Program-made: the position numbers and the translations under genes | The notes under the pieces: generated by a model | Database searches by the model: none | What the model was told of the DNA's origin: nothing | The model's input: only the letters and a program-made list of their open reading frames with translations | Source of the DNA: a virus | Lineage: Duplodnaviria > Heunggongvirae > Uroviricota > Caudoviricetes | DNA: 18,542 nucleotides | Strand: one strand, 5' to 3' | IMG/VR virus record: IMGVR_UViG_2541047913_000008 | Location: 1 to 18,542 of that record | Shown: positions 497-9,918 of the stretch, piece after piece | Numbering within the stretch: position 1 is the first letter of the stretch | Layout: each line of letters opens with the position of its first letter

Positions 497-2494
497 TTAT
501 GCCGCTGCTTCGCTTTCTTTCACTTTGACAGTGACCGTATCAAGCAGTACCGGATACGTCGCTTTTGCCCCCGTGATATCTGTCAGCGTCAGCGTATCTG
601 CTGTAAAGCCATCATTTGTCCACATCACAAGGTCAAACGCCGTCTGCTCTGTACCATCAATCACCGGAACGACTCTTTCGCTGTTATTTCCCGCAAAGCG
701 GAAAACAACCGTATGCCAGTTATGGTCAAACGCACCAAATGTACCCAGTTGTGCATTCGACTTGCCCTTGTGGTGCATAAGATTCAGATTTGATGCATCC
801 GTCTGAAGGAAGAATGATGCCAGCATACTGTTTGCTGCCGCGCCTGACGCCCACTGCGACACCGGCCAGTAGAGACCAAAGACAAACTGTCCGTTCACCA
901 GTTCGCTTCCGTCCGGAATTTTGAACCGTACGGCAATTTCACCCCCCTTGCTGAGAAGATTTTTTGCCTCCTCCACTGCAACAGTACGGAACATTTTCCA
1001 GGACGTCAGTTTACCGGGCTGTTTTTCCAGTCGCAGCGCTTTCCGTCCACCGTCATCAGTCACAGTGCCTTTGCCACCGGCAGCCCCCCACTGCTGCTCT
1101 GTCCATACACCATTTCCACTGTTCGCATCATATTCAGCCACCGTCCTGGTACTGCTCACGGCCTCATCATGACCAGTACCAGCAACACCGCCATCCTGCG
1201 GTTTCTCAACACCCGGTACCCCCGGACTGACATCATCACCGGGAGTTGTACCACCCGACTGCGGTGCGCTCTGCCCGGTAAGGAACGATAATGTCCGCCC
1301 GGCGTACTGCAAAATGGCACCTGCCAGGCGGTCTGAAACAAGGCCTCTTCGCGCCCAGGAGCTGAAGTGCGTTTTACGATCGGCTGACGTCCAGTTACTG
1401 GCAGTGCGTGACGCAGCGCCATAGTATCCCGCCGGGATAATGTCCGGATCTTCTGACGGCTCGTTTGTCGGCACATTCACACCATGCTCATCCGTCATCA
1501 ACGGCACAAAGAAGATTTTTTTTGCGGATTTCGTCTTGTATGCACCATACACCGCATCGTATTGCGAAGAATAAGTCTGCTTCCAGTAGTAGGTCGTGTC
1601 GCCACAAATCCAGGGAACCGATGACGGAGAGCCCCCGAGACACTGACCTCCGAATTCCGACAGGTCAGAACGATATTTTTCCACCATGGAATCAAACAGC
1701 CCCGGCTGAGTGGCGTATGCACCCTGTTTCAAATCAAACTCGCCCTGCATCCAGACCACTGCAAGCAGAATATTTTTAGGGTTAGCCTTCAGTGCGGCCT
1801 GAGTACGGGTAAGCAGGTCCTTGTACAGTGGCTTATCTACACCCCAGCGTGCCGAGGTCTCGCTTGCGCCGGTGGATTCGCTGAAAGTACCTTCATCGCC
1901 CTCCAAAAATGCAGAACCACCACGGCAGCACGGAACCAGAAGAATACCGGCATTCGCCGGAATAAACGGCAGCAGTTTTTTGGCGATATGCAGCCCCTGC
2001 CCCACAGTTCCGTACTGCCCCTTTGACAAGTCCGCTTTCGGATGGTTAAGACGGCTCATGTCCTGTACATCATGCAGACAATGGTCCGCCGGAATGATGT
2101 CGTTATATTTACAGGCGACACCACCCGGTGTCACCGTACTGCGACGCGCCAGCTGTTTAATACGCGGGTCCGGACGGTCATATGTCTCCGGCAGCGGCAG
2201 CCCTTCACCAAAAGACATTGAGTTTGACTGCCCGGCCAGGGCAACAACAAAGTAATACTCCGGTTCGCTGGTGGTGCTGATAACTGTGCCTTCTCCATCC
2301 GACGGCTTCACCACCACAGGTGTGGTGACATTACCTTCTGCGACAATCGCCTGAATAAGTGCTGCGCCATCATCCGTATACGAAGAAAACGGCCCGCCGT
2401 ATGGTTGCCATCCTTCACGAATTTTTTGAGCAAGCGCATCCGCAAGGTCTGACGGCGATGCCGCCCTGACCACATCGTAGTGTTTAAATGCCAT
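497..2494 (-). CDS. nanS: Prophage-encoded sialate O-acetylesterase of the NanS-p type (DUF1737-like N-terminus plus SASA/SGNH esterase domain plus C-terminal extension)
   Basis: 665-aa ORF, ATG start with GGAGG ribosome-binding site. N-terminus (MAFKHYDVVRAASPSDLADALAQKIREGWQPYGGPF) looks like DUF1737; GQSNS motif (in YYFVVALAGQSNSMSFGEG) matches the SASA catalytic serine motif. It sits downstream of Q as in Stx phages. Confidence 0.85.
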   Translation of the reverse strand: MAFKHYDVVRAASPSDLADALAQKIREGWQPYGGPFSSYTDDGAALIQAIVAEGNVTTPVVVKPSDGEGTVISTTSEPEYYFVVALAGQSNSMSFGEGLPLPETYDRPDPRIKQLARRSTVTPGGVACKYNDIIPADHCLHDVQDMSRLNHPKADLSKGQYGTVGQGLHIAKKLLPFIPANAGILLVPCCRGGSAFLEGDEGTFSESTGASETSARWGVDKPLYKDLLTRTQAALKANPKNILLAVVWMQGEFDLKQGAYATQPGLFDSMVEKYRSDLSEFGGQCLGGSPSSVPWICGDTTYYWKQTYSSQYDAVYGAYKTKSAKKIFFVPLMTDEHGVNVPTNEPSEDPDIIPAGYYGAASRTASNWTSADRKTHFSSWARRGLVSDRLAGAILQYAGRTLSFLTGQSAPQSGGTTPGDDVSPGVPGVEKPQDGGVAGTGHDEAVSSTRTVAEYDANSGNGVWTEQQWGAAGGKGTVTDDGGRKALRLEKQPGKLTSWKMFRTVAVEEAKNLLSKGGEIAVRFKIPDGSELVNGQFVFGLYWPVSQWASGAAANSMLASFFLQTDASNLNLMHHKGKSNAQLGTFGAFDHNWHTVVFRFAGNNSERVVPVIDGTEQTAFDLVMWTNDGFTADTLTLTDITGAKATYPVLLDTVTVKVKESEAAA

Positions 2495-2688
2495 GAATCC
2501 TCCCGGCCTGGATAATATTGTGAGTAAAATGAGGAGCGGGCTGAAGTCCGGAAGTTACAGGACAATGGCAGAAGATAGACAACAGCCCGCAATACGAAAA
2601 AGGCCGCGCTATTGCGCAGAGTGATTACTGTCGGATATTATTCGCCAGCTGAAATATTACTTCACGTTTTGTTGTTTATTCCTTGCCG

Positions 2689-2716
2689 CCCGCGTCTCCC
2701 AGCGCGGGATTTTTTT
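2689..2716 (+). terminator. Plus-oriented intrinsic terminator
   Basis: Stem CCCGCG(2689-2694)/CGCGGG(2703-2708), 8-nt loop, then A-TTTTTTT (2710-2716). Confidence 0.4.
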
Positions 2717-2727
2717 GTCCATAAGAA

Positions 2728-2747
2728 AGCCCCTCCGGAGAGGGGCT
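2728..2747. repeat. Perfect 8-bp inverted repeat with 4-nt spacer (AGCCCCTC-cgga-GAGGGGCT)
   Basis: Read directly from the sequence. Could be a hairpin or a dimeric protein-binding site. Confidence 0.5.
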
Positions 2748-3061
2748 GGAGAGTGGCGCTATGTGCCATTGCATGGTGCCGGGTGCCTCCCGGTGAGTTC
2801 AGTATCAGCACCTGAACCCGCACAGAAAGGATAAGGGTCGGTGACAAAACACCAGTTGCTGATTGCCCCTCCGCACAGGGGGATTCACCATGCCAGTTTC
2901 TTTTAACAAACTCCCCGCAAACCAGACAACAGTCAACCGCCTGAATTGTGAGGTATTTAAAAATTTCAACGGGTAACTGATACCCTGCTAATCGCCTGAT
3001 GCTTTCTTTTTCAGCAACGGGGAAGCAACAACCACCACACCCACCAGCCGCCCATTTACCA

Positions 3062-3090
3062 CAAATAAAAAAGCCTTCACTGCGGAAGGC
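3062..3090 (-). terminator. Minus-strand intrinsic terminator at the end of the 65-aa ORF
   Basis: On the minus strand: stem GCCTTC/GAAGGC (plus 3073-3078 and 3085-3090) followed by TTTTTTATT (plus A-tract 3064-3072). Overlaps the ORF stop codon. Confidence 0.6.
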
Positions 3091-3274
3091 GTCTGTAACA
3101 ACCGAACTGATAGTCTGCCAGACCCGCCATAACCAGCTGGGTCAGTATTAACTGGCAGCGTTCGCGTGAAAGGTAAGTATTCTGCGCAATCTCCCCGACG
3201 GTCGCCGGTTCGGTGACGCTTAATTCATTAAACACCACTCTGGCGGTTTCGGTCATATCCTGCTGTTTCAGCAT
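3077..3274 (-). CDS. Small winged-helix-like DNA-binding protein (hypothetical)
   Basis: 65-aa ORF with ATG start, purine-rich ribosome-binding site and its own terminator. Segment TVGEIAQNTYLSRERCQLILTQLVMAGL looks like a helix-turn-helix. Confidence 0.45.
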   Translation of the reverse strand: MLKQQDMTETARVVFNELSVTEPATVGEIAQNTYLSRERCQLILTQLVMAGLADYQFGCYRRLPQ

Positions 3275-3385
3275 GTCTTTTTCCGGTTAACGTGACACAC
3301 CAATAACTCTTGTCGAAAAAGCCAGCAAGCTGAAAGACCGGTATTCACCGCCGCCAGCGCGTTTACTGTACTGGACCGATTTCAG

Positions 3386-3412
3386 CCATAAAAAACCCGC
3401 TCGCGGCGGGTT
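3386..3412 (-). terminator. tR'-like intrinsic terminator about 60 nt downstream of Q
   Basis: On the minus strand: ACCCGC-cgcga-GCGGGT followed by TTTTTTAT (plus 3388-3412). Position matches the lambdoid late terminator that Q modifies RNA polymerase to read through. Confidence 0.6.
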
Positions 3413-3470
3413 TAAGCTGTGTGGCGTAGTAACCACTCTTAACATACTGACATACTTTTTGCGGACCGCG

Positions 3471-3863
3471 CTAATCATTTTTTACTTTTTTGGGCAGCCA
3501 GTCGTCCATCTCCAGCCTTACACCCAGCATCGACAGACATCCGTCAATAAATCCTTCAGCAATCTGCATCTCAATTCGTATTGCCTTTTCGCTCTTCTTT
3601 CTTGTTCTGGCAATCTGCCTTTTTGATATGCGCAGCAGATAATGAGCTACCAGCAGCGAATACTCGTCCGGTTTTTTCTTCTTCAGGCGCGTAAGGCAGT
3701 TTTCGATGATAAGGCCGTCATCATCGCTGCAGGCCGGGCGAGGTTTAGCGGTGGATGGTAAAAGGCCTTTAAATCCAGCAGCTATCGGAGAATAGTCCAC
3801 CCCGGCGTTACCACTTGCCGCCCATGCCCCCCAGCGTTCGAGAACCATCTGAATATCACGCAT
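3471..3863 (-). CDS. Q: Late-gene antiterminator Q (QuuD/phage-21-type family)
   Basis: Start MRDIQMVLERWGAWAA..AAGFKGL..RLKKK...RLEMD resembles the QuuD-type Q proteins of E. coli prophages as I recall them. ATG at 3863 has a GGAGA ribosome-binding site; the ORF-track start at 3878 is a TTG. Lies between the replication/DUF968 genes and the terminator. Confidence 0.7.
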   Translation of the reverse strand: MRDIQMVLERWGAWAASGNAGVDYSPIAAGFKGLLPSTAKPRPACSDDDGLIIENCLTRLKKKKPDEYSLLVAHYLLRISKRQIARTRKKSEKAIRIEMQIAEGFIDGCLSMLGVRLEMDDWLPKKVKND

Positions 3864-3880
3864 CAACTTTCTCCACAAAA

Positions 3881-4876
3881 TCAGGACAGCACACCAATCG
3901 CCAGCGCGCGATCGATAAAACGAAATATCAGCTCCAGTTGGGAACCATACTTCTCTTCAAATGCCACGGTATCCGCATGCAGTTCGTCATGGTGTTTTCT
4001 GCACAAAGGCAACACAAAAAGGTCATGCGCTTTTGTACCCATTCCACCCTGACCATGACCAATCAGGTGATGAGGATCGTCGGCTGGCTTACCACAACAT
4101 GCACACGGCTGCGTCTTAACCCAGCGCGTGTACTTTTCATTAACCCAGCGACGACGTTTGGGGCGTAACATAAAAGACTCCGGCGACTCCGGATCCACTT
4201 TCAGCGCCAGCACCTTTTTCGCCTTATCCCGGATGATGCTGGTGGCAGGAACCGAAGGCACAAGGTCACTTTCCCGGGTGACAGACGGCACAACAGGCTT
4301 CGGTAATCTCAGTGCCTTACGGGCTGCACTTTCCGGTAAGGCATCCGCCAGGTCATTACGAACCAGCCACCAGCACAGTTCCGGCATTGTCACAACGTGG
4401 CTGTCATCAAAACCGAGATCACGACGGACTACGGACAACACCCAGCGGGCACAGTTATCCGTTGCCATTGATTCCAGACGTTCCGTGAACTGATCGCGAA
4501 GCAGGTTATCGCAGTGCCAGCACAGACGGATTGCGCCCGGCGCGTGTCGCATTGTGGTCATGTTCTCGCTGTGCCATCCGGAATGAGGCCACTGGCAGCC
4601 TTTTTCACGAAGTAACCAGCTCTCAAGGCATTCCACGCCACCAGCACGACGGATCACCGCCTCATGGCGGAACACGGCCCGAACGGCAGGATCATCCGCC
4701 AGCGGTTGTGATGCTGCCGGAACGGCACCACTGGCAAAAGATGAATAACGTTCCGGCTCAGGCTCCAGCAGGACACGCCCCTGCATAAACAGGGGCATCA
4801 GCTCTGAACCGGGTCTGAACAAGACGATCCCCATACGCGGGGCAATTTCAGGGGTCAGCAGTGCTCTCACGGTCAC
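3881..4876 (-). CDS. Phage protein with C-terminal Cys/His cluster (DUF968-like, HNH/zinc-finger-like)
   Basis: 331-aa ORF. C-terminal motif CACCGKPADDPHHLIGHGQGG...CRKHHDELH. GTG start at 4876 or 4870, so the start is uncertain. Sits where nin-region genes lie in lambda. Confidence 0.5.
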   Translation of the reverse strand: MTVRALLTPEIAPRMGIVLFRPGSELMPLFMQGRVLLEPEPERYSSFASGAVPAASQPLADDPAVRAVFRHEAVIRRAGGVECLESWLLREKGCQWPHSGWHSENMTTMRHAPGAIRLCWHCDNLLRDQFTERLESMATDNCARWVLSVVRRDLGFDDSHVVTMPELCWWLVRNDLADALPESAARKALRLPKPVVPSVTRESDLVPSVPATSIIRDKAKKVLALKVDPESPESFMLRPKRRRWVNEKYTRWVKTQPCACCGKPADDPHHLIGHGQGGMGTKAHDLFVLPLCRKHHDELHADTVAFEEKYGSQLELIFRFIDRALAIGVLS

Positions 4877-9535: not shown

Positions 9536-9699
9536 GATGGCAGCCTCCGTTGACTGTGGAAAACTTCCACCACCGGAGCTGCGAAACTCACTGGTGGCAG
9601 ACTGAACAGGGTTCGCAGTACCGGCGTCAACGGAGACCGGCGAGCCTTTCGGCTCCCCTGCCCAGCCCACCATAATTCTGGCGTGCGTGAGCGCGGACG

Positions 9700-9721
9700 A
9701 TAAAAAAGACGCTGGCGCGTC
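9700..9721 (-). terminator. Minus-strand intrinsic-terminator-like hairpin between the cro-proximal genes and the replication genes
   Basis: On the minus strand: GACGC-gcca-GCGTC followed by TTTTTTAT (plus 9701-9721). Short 5-bp stem. Confidence 0.35.
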
Positions 9722-9918
9722 ATATATCGCCGTTGACAATTCCGGGCTGCGACCCCCGGCACCCGCTTTATAAGGTGCCTGAGCAGTGTAACGTCCCGGA
9801 ATTGCAGAATCAATATTTGGTCTTGAAATGATCATATAGCTGCTGATATCTTTAGAACTGTTCTTGGATGTTTCGGAGCCGTTTTATGCGAAACAGCTCC
9901 CCGTTATTGATGTTGAGT

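Follow-up and report, generated by a model that had tools for sequence, protein, structure and literature searches.

What occupies the toxin slot of a phage that is related to Stx phages and is itself stx-negative? This question is raised by the interval between the antiterminator gene Q and a nanS-like gene in the viral record IMGVR_UViG_2541047913_000008, of which a stretch of 18,542 nt was analysed (the window; all coordinates refer to this whole stretch). The genes of the locus lie on the minus strand, and the interval (2495-3470) is bounded exactly by the stop codon of Q (3473-3471) and the start codon of nanS (2494-2492), as a preliminary description of this DNA had correctly placed it. 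That description took the interval for the moron insertion slot of the late operon, and this view is supported here: the interval is a moron slot downstream of a Q-antiterminated late promoter. It had further reported that the slot held only an open reading frame (ORF) for a 65-aa winged-helix protein (orf65) and about 580 bp without a convincing ORF. The ORF content was described correctly; the word 'only' was not justified, as the same DNA contains an STnc100-family small RNA (sRNA) gene, a convergent sRNA gene of EcOnc08/21/42 type and the 3' remnant of tciB. We consider it highly probable that the interval is the moron slot in the late operon of a lambdoid prophage, in a recombinant state without cargo, and that known regulatory elements fill it. 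On the minus strand these follow one another as a late-promoter region that overlaps the end of Q, a strong terminator hairpin, orf65 with its terminator, a joint at a Chi site, the tciB remnant, STnc100 with its terminator, and nanS-p, with the EcOnc08/21/42-type gene converging from the plus strand.

The 582 bp beyond orf65 (2495-3076) contain no credible ORF, and the ORFs of at least 40 aa within them have no Pfam matches. The tRNA scan and Rfam check proposed in the preliminary description gave no tRNA and, instead, a match to STnc100 (RF02076) at 2922-2717(-). This match scores 143.2 bits against a gathering score of 47 (E 2.7e-33), covers model positions 1-206 and is not truncated. The gene that it defines (2717-2950, minus strand) is of the EcOnc27/sRNA103/EcOnc05 type and related to PasD. 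Its 3' end is a Rho-independent terminator with a hairpin at 2747-2728 followed by UUUCUUAU; the element as a whole, AGCCCCTCTCCGGAGGGGCT with TTCTTAT, spans 2747-2721(-). When STnc100 copies are aligned, they have a common block that begins at TCACAATTCAG and is preceded by -10-like hexamers starting with TA. The transcript is likely to start near 2948, at the conserved CACAATTCAG and behind the -10-like TTAAAT at 2960-2955(-), because the Northern sizes of the homologues in Sakai (EcOnc05, ~222 nt; EcOnc27, ~235/247 nt) fit a start at the common block. Discrete Hfq-associated RNAs have been seen for EcOnc27 and EcOnc05 in enterohaemorrhagic E. coli (EHEC) by Northern blot and Hfq crosslinking and analysis of cDNA (Hfq-CRAC). 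By Rfam, members of the family lie directly 3' of stx2B in phage Stx2_14040 and in Sakai prophage Sp5, and 3' of stx1B in an Stx1 phage. The Sp5 copy has been equated with both EcOnc27 (Tree et al. 2014) and sRNA103 (Gruber and Sperandio) (PMC12711010, PMC7873438); EcOnc27/sRNA103 binds Hfq, and its overexpression raises fimZ and espA transcripts.

Facing this gene is a second sRNA gene, antisense to the nanS leader, which was placed on the plus strand at 2445-2715 (5' end uncertain) from a probe match and a terminator. At 2608-2642(-) the window agrees without a mismatch with the Northern probe published for EcOnc08/21/42; as the probe has the minus-strand sequence, the RNA that it detects is encoded on the plus strand. 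Probe sequences were used to place the EcOnc genes, the peak coordinates being ambiguous between Sakai genome versions. The plus-strand terminator, CCCGCGTCTCCCAGCGCGGG followed by T7, spans 2689-2715 with its hairpin at 2689-2708, so that the terminators of the two sRNA genes face each other 20 nt apart (minus 2747-2728, plus 2689-2708). Convergent Hfq-bound sRNA genes have been described at the moron site 3' of PR', between the moron coding sequence and a conserved ORF, in Sakai Sp3, 4, 5, 9, 10, 11, 15 and 17 (Tree et al. 2014, PMC4104026). Both marks of such a dyad are found here, namely facing terminators, between orf65 and nanS, and an opposite member that is homologous to an EcOnc RNA. 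Sakai Sp4 and window 2963-2387 are 91% identical, and window 2800-2305 is 97% identical to an Stx1 phage. EcOnc08/21/42 is a ~271-nt RNA in Sp4 and Sp15; the 5' end in the window could hence lie at ~2445 if this length applies, or at ~2523 if transcription were to begin from a promoter-like site. This site, ATG(C/T)CA-N17-GATAAT, is conserved, overlaps the nanS start codon and reads ATGCCA-N17-GATAAT in the window (2488-2516).

The DNA between orf65 and the sRNA dyad records how the slot came to lack cargo. Homology to the orf65-type module (Stx2_14040, Sp4, phiP27) stops at 3037 and that to the tciB-type module begins at ~3046; the overlap of the two, GCTGGTGGGTGT, is a common stretch of ~11 nt that contains the Chi octamer GCTGGTGG (3048-3041, minus strand) and is found in both parental types. 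The left module up to 3037 is 95% identical to Stx2_14040, and the right module (3046-2890) is 98.7% identical to phage JLK-2012, in which the match starts inside tciB (DUF3927). A recombination joint was therefore placed at 3037-3048 from blastn breakpoints, a three-way alignment and a Chi search, left homology ending and right homology beginning over the Chi-bearing overlap. Translation of 3056-2991 yields the last 23 residues of TciB (residues 32-54 of JLK-2012 TciB; 83% identity, E 2e-6 by tblastn), ending in ...VVVVASPLLKKKASGD and the stop codon TAG (2990-2988). Only residues 32-54 are recognizable and no complete TciB ORF was found in the window; judged from this alignment, 2988-3056(-) is a remnant that comprises the last ~20 codons of a truncated tciB. 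The exact junction recurs in 201 of 5,426 complete E. coli genomes (query 3110-2890, covered to at least 80%), 241 records having a best match of at least 99% identity, and it is present in phage PhiR5_1 (99.5% identical). Comparison with Stx1 and Stx2 phage genomes had been suggested in the preliminary description as a means of telling a deletion scar from different cargo or an ancestral state. By the breakpoints that this comparison gave, the slot is a joint of orf65-type and tciAB-type late modules without the cargo of either parent, neither an ancestral empty site nor an stx deletion.

Three other histories or contents of the slot have to be weighed against this one. The DUF968-Q-orf65 segment is 95% identical to Stx2_14040, where a methylase gene, three tRNA genes and stx2AB follow, and orf65 is normally followed by an N6/N4 methylase gene in E. 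coli, Klebsiella and Salmonella prophages, a partner that is missing in the window. The window might hence descend from an Stx-converting phage in which a simple internal deletion removed methylase, tRNAs and stxAB. Such a deletion would keep the ~45 nt after stxB, whereas the DNA to the right of the joint is the tciB 3' end and spacer at 98.7% identity to the stx-negative JLK-2012, not the sequence that follows stx2B or stx1B. Nor was any remnant of stx, tRNA or methylase found. ARAGORN detected 0 tRNA or tmRNA genes in the whole window; Rfam gave no tRNA that reached the gathering score anywhere in the window, nor any at E<=10 between 2300 and 3700; and the T-arm motif GGTTCGAATCC is absent even with one mismatch allowed. 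Tblastn searches with Stx1A/B, Stx2A/B and the Stx2-phage methylase returned chance matches only (E>=0.5), and a sensitive word-7 blastn search with Stx-phage cargo DNA gave nothing in the interval. The preliminary description had likewise seen neither a tRNA T-arm motif nor an Stx-like coding sequence, and both absences are borne out. It had named a tRNA, an stx remnant or a Q and nanS unrelated to Stx phages as findings that would speak against it, and none of these came to light. The window thus has the Q and nanS-p of the Stx-phage lineage, with no stxAB between PR' and nanS-p and no tRNA genes. Loss of the toxin by simple deletion is on these grounds very improbable.

That the slot is ancestral and was never occupied seems less probable again. 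The junction is indeed widespread (201 genomes) and occurs in an isolated phage, PhiR5_1, but a truncated tciB C terminus with its stop codon and without the rest of the gene is a derived state, and so is an orf65 that is parted from its usual methylase partner. Least credible of all is that the 582 bp encode an unrecognized small protein or other new cargo in place of the sRNAs. Mechanically called ORFs of 43-67 aa do occur on both strands, and a RefSeq pseudo-coding-sequence fragment lies opposite the STnc100 region in related genomes; the small ORFs have no Pfam match, however, the RefSeq fragment is flagged as incomplete with an internal stop, and the region is explained by the 143-bit covariance match together with the perfect fit of a probe by which an Hfq-bound RNA was detected.

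Several observations weigh against our preferred interpretation, a recombinant slot that carries an sRNA dyad. All that is proposed on transcript ends, promoters and Hfq dependence is taken over from the homologues in EHEC Sakai. A sigma-70 scan of 2400-3600 gave one site, no more than in shuffled sequences, and the proposed sRNA promoters are weak matches; the promoter assignments are hence based on conservation and on the RNA sizes in the literature. In its central variable block, the STnc100 copy of the window differs from EcOnc05 and EcOnc27, so the targets of these RNAs are not transferable to the window copy; this difference also explains why the EcOnc05 probe has no match in the window within 3 mismatches. 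As to the joint, its position at Chi could stem from simple microhomology and not from Chi activity, and one crossover or several could have produced it.

Taken together, a recombinant slot of this kind would work as follows. In the lysogen, PR' transcripts would stop at the first hairpin. Each of the two sRNAs would have a promoter of its own and would act, by way of Hfq, on mRNAs of the host or the prophage; the EHEC homologues have been seen to be expressed and to bind Hfq. After induction, by analogy with lambdoid phages, RNA polymerase modified by Q would pass the minus-strand terminators and go on to transcribe nanS and the lysis genes. The slot itself probably arose from two late modules, one of the orf65 type (known from Stx2_14040, phiP27 and Sp4) and one of the tciAB type (known from JLK-2012), which were joined in the ~11-nt Chi stretch with loss of the cargo of both.

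The elements upstream of the joint bear on the first of these steps. Q (3471-3878; PF06530, E 3e-52 by Pfam) is 93% identical to Q of the Stx2a phage Stx2_14040 and 48% identical to Q of Sakai Sp5, with a distant match to Q21 in the PDB (E 1e-7). Its ORF opens at TTG 3878; the alignments to Stx2_14040 and Sp5 Q both begin at residue 6, and since they do, the true start is likely to be ATG 3863 (MRDIQ..., five codons downstream), which would give a protein of ~130 aa. Alignment with Sakai Sp5 placed a PR'-like late promoter core, TGT + CAGTAT, at 3452-3444(-) (element 3437-3452); by homology only, its +1 would lie near 3437. In Sp5 the PR' transcript is cut by RNase E in GU/AUU at +173 and has its 3' end at +258 (Sy et al. 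2020, PMC7547250); from these numbers we computed that PR' starts at position 3346 of the Sp5 locus, ~22 nt past the Q stop codon. In the window, a strong intrinsic-terminator hairpin, AAACCCGC-CGCGA-GCGGGTTT followed by TTTAT, was identified at 3413-3388(-) from its sequence and fold (-19.6 kcal/mol for 3437-3386). The hairpin region and its counterparts in Stx1 and Stx2 phages are 81-82% identical across 57 nt, and the hairpin aligns with one of Sp5 at ~+25..+50 of the PR' transcript, just after Q.

The preliminary description had called this element a tR'-like terminator. It stands as the first terminator after the late promoter; it is, by its aligned position, not the orthologue of the mapped tR' (+258) that yields StxS. 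A blastn search with positions 3400-3760 of the Sp5 locus found no match in the window; what Sp5 and the window have in common of the long transcript ends after ~50 nt. The hairpin was accordingly rejected as a tR'/StxS homologue, the mapped tR' and the 74-nt StxS segment being without counterpart in the window. Weak Rfam matches (isrK at 18 bits and a Trp leader at 3387-3479; snoZ13; anti-hemB) were dismissed as terminator-driven chance.

Between this hairpin and the joint lies orf65 (3077-3274, 65 aa), a stand-alone winged-helix protein that matches phrog_331 (E 1.4e-37). Its 334 homologues come from Escherichia, Shigella, Salmonella, Klebsiella, Citrobacter and Buttiauxella and have 27 invariant positions. 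The AlphaFold2 model (predicted local distance difference test score 74.6) consists of helices 4-16, 26-33 and 37-49 and strands 53-56 and 59-62, the three helices and β-hairpin of a winged helix, and Foldseek pairs it with the winged helix-turn-helix (wHTH) domains of IclR, MarR and OhrR (template modelling scores of 0.7-0.8, with E values of only ~3e-3). The 65-aa ORF of the preliminary description is hence real and conserved. Sources label phrog_331 as 'TrmB family' or 'DprA-like winged helix'; orf65 scores 18.0 bits against Pfam TrmB (PF01978), below the cut-off of 25.6, and should better be named a winged-helix protein of phrog_331 than a TrmB-family member. A sequence search of the PDB with orf65 gave nothing useful, and neither orf65 nor nanS-p is modelled in NCBIfam. 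An intrinsic terminator, GCCTTCCGCAGTGAAGGC followed by TTTTTTA (3066-3090, minus strand; terminator scan and fold), overlaps the stop codon of orf65 and is kept in Stx2_14040 and Sp4.

In many lambdoid prophages, including Stx2a and Stx2e phages, orf65 is the first gene after the late promoter. An N6_N4 methyltransferase gene (PF01555) lies ~150 bp downstream of the orf65 homologue in Klebsiella and Salmonella prophages and in Stx2_14040, and the pair sits downstream of three Q families (PF06323; PF06576/PF06530; PF06530). This consistent pairing suggests that the wHTH protein and the methylase function together. The window has no methylase gene, and orf65 is orphaned there beside the sRNA dyad. 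One could suppose that orf65 is an uncharacterized stand-alone winged-helix regulator and that, separately, the joint on Chi marks Chi-associated module exchange at the moron slot; we hold this double proposal to be unlikely. Were it true, orf65 could control late-region, methylase or sRNA expression and possibly, in Stx2 relatives, toxin expression.

Further observations concern the two sRNA genes. In relatives of the window, the RefSeq Prokaryotic Genome Annotation Pipeline (PGAP) places a pseudo 'hypothetical protein' (internal stop, incomplete) opposite STnc100, in one locus (L004) at 3106-3246, equivalent to window ~2900-2765; this is probably an annotation artefact over the sRNA gene. 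In the close relatives E. coli SW071611 and NCTC9112 (3087-3779 of loci L005 and L006), two tandem STnc100-family genes lie between orf65 and nanS. The variable blocks of the tandem copies differ, and an extra terminated element lies between them; in NCTC9112 the convergent partner is AsxR/AgvB-like and not of EcOnc42 type. AsxR and AgvB (RF02703/RF02702) had also been considered as the partner in the window and were rejected, there being no Rfam match at E<=10 in 2300-3700, with Sakai Sp5 AsxR detected at 88 bits as a positive control. Within the nanS leader, ~100 nt upstream of the nanS start, there is a weak terminator-like hairpin, CTGCGCAATAGCGCGG followed by CCTTTTTCG (2596-2619(-)). It is conserved in Sp4 and Stx phages and could be a nanS attenuator or a structure of the antisense RNA.

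Others concern the joint. The 18.5 kb contain 10 Chi octamers against 0.7 expected (~14-fold), a number that 0 of 200 shuffles reached. They lie at 2267(+), 3041(-), 4238(+), 4367(-), 4638(-), 4991(-), 5641(-), 7782(-), 10588(-) and 16808(-), one of them (3041) exactly on the mosaic joint. Eight of the ten are on the minus strand, the sense of phage transcription, and are so oriented that they would be active on RecBCD that comes in from the late/cos side. A 73-aa E. coli database protein (P0093) consists of orf65 residues 1-54 (...VMAGLAD) fused to a TciB-like C terminus, GVLVAAVLAVLWPLLRKSE; as judged from its sequence, this chimera indicates a second, independent orf65/tciB joint in other genomes. 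Among five aligned loci (the window and L001, L004, L005 and L006), 3110-2720(-), which comprises the 3' half of orf65, the joint and the whole STnc100 gene, is near invariant with a single substitution, while the Q-proximal DNA and the nanS leader vary by several percent. The near-invariant block is consistent with a recently spread module.

The flanks of the locus complete the description. A DUF968 gene (3881-4876, minus strand) lies upstream of Q. The nanS-like gene (497-2494, minus strand) encodes a 665-aa NanS-p-type sialate O-acetylesterase (DUF1737, SASA and DUF6645 by Pfam; phrog_143) and is homologous to yjhS/nanS-p of Stx1 and Stx2 phages, with 80-97% DNA identity in the nanS region. 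Far from the slot, in the early region, Rfam found a C4 antisense RNA (78.8 bits) and an adjoining isrK-family RNA (58.7 bits) at 9590-9677(-) and 9702-9778(-). The pair also occurs in Stx2_14040 (501-689 of the locus L002) and resembles a c4 antirepressor-control module of P1/P4 type, here within a lambdoid prophage.

The architecture of the slot has been described before (Tree et al. 2014, PMC4104026) and is common in E. coli, and nothing fundamentally new is added to it here. An unexplained vacancy of the toxin slot dissolves, as the slot carries a published, widespread sRNA dyad and a recombination scar. The scar illustrates the swapping of late-region modules, and stx-negative prophages are seen to bear the same sRNA dyads as toxin phages. 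The toxin slot of an stx-negative Stx-phage relative thus holds sRNA genes of a family with known links to the biology of EHEC (EcOnc27/sRNA103); the region downstream of stx2 has been flagged as predictive of haemolytic uraemic syndrome (PMC12711010). 'ORF-free' late DNA of prophages is hence worth screening with RNA models.

Comparison with characterized phages and prophages sets the locus among its relatives. The preliminary description had likened the order of Q, terminator and nanS to that of Stx phages; this holds, and Q, orf65 and nanS are of the Stx-phage lineage. PasD of enteropathogenic E. coli E2348/69, a prophage sRNA between Q and a sialic-acid esterase gene that is reported to be structurally related to STnc100 (Zhu, Shabalina and Storz, bioRxiv 2026), is placed like the sRNA of the window; the window copy was assigned to STnc100 by Rfam only. 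Sakai Sp4 (EcOnc05 and EcOnc08/21) is like the window in its STnc100-type sRNA on the late strand, opposite-strand sRNA and nanS-p leader, with the orf65 homologue ECs_1086 upstream. Unlike the window, Sp4 has cargo between its orf65 homologue and the sRNA, namely the AraC-family regulator ECs_1087 and three tRNAs, and its STnc100 differs in the central variable block. The stx2 locus of Sakai Sp5 and 933W, which runs StxS, tRNAs, stx2AB, EcOnc27/sRNA103 with AsxR, and nanS-p, has the order of the window (Q, late promoter, slot, STnc100-family sRNA, convergent partner, nanS-p), and the PR' transcripts of Sp5 and the window are homologous over their first ~50 nt. The window is without the tRNAs, stx2AB and the 74-nt StxS, and its convergent partner is of the long EcOnc42 type and not the 53-nt AsxR.

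In the Stx2a-converting phage Stx2_14040 (LC567818), the segment from DUF968 through Q, the hairpin and orf65 to its terminator is 95% identical to window 5200-3037, and STnc100 and nanS lie downstream as in the window. Between them Stx2_14040 carries 2,837 bp of cargo (methylase, tRNA-Met/Arg/Arg and stx2AB), whereas the window has 85 bp (3036-2952); homology resumes at window 2951, which corresponds to 46 nt after stx2B. JLK-2012 (NC_049942) supplies the counterpart of the right module, the tciB 3' end, spacer and 5' part of STnc100 being 98.7% identical to the window. Its late region consists of Q, three tRNAs, tciA, tciB, the STnc100 region and nanS-p; it is stx-negative and differs from the window in having another Q, three other tRNAs and an intact tciA-tciB, and in being without orf65. 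Finally, in PhiR5_1 (PV340545) the whole interval is collinear with that of the window, at 92% identity.

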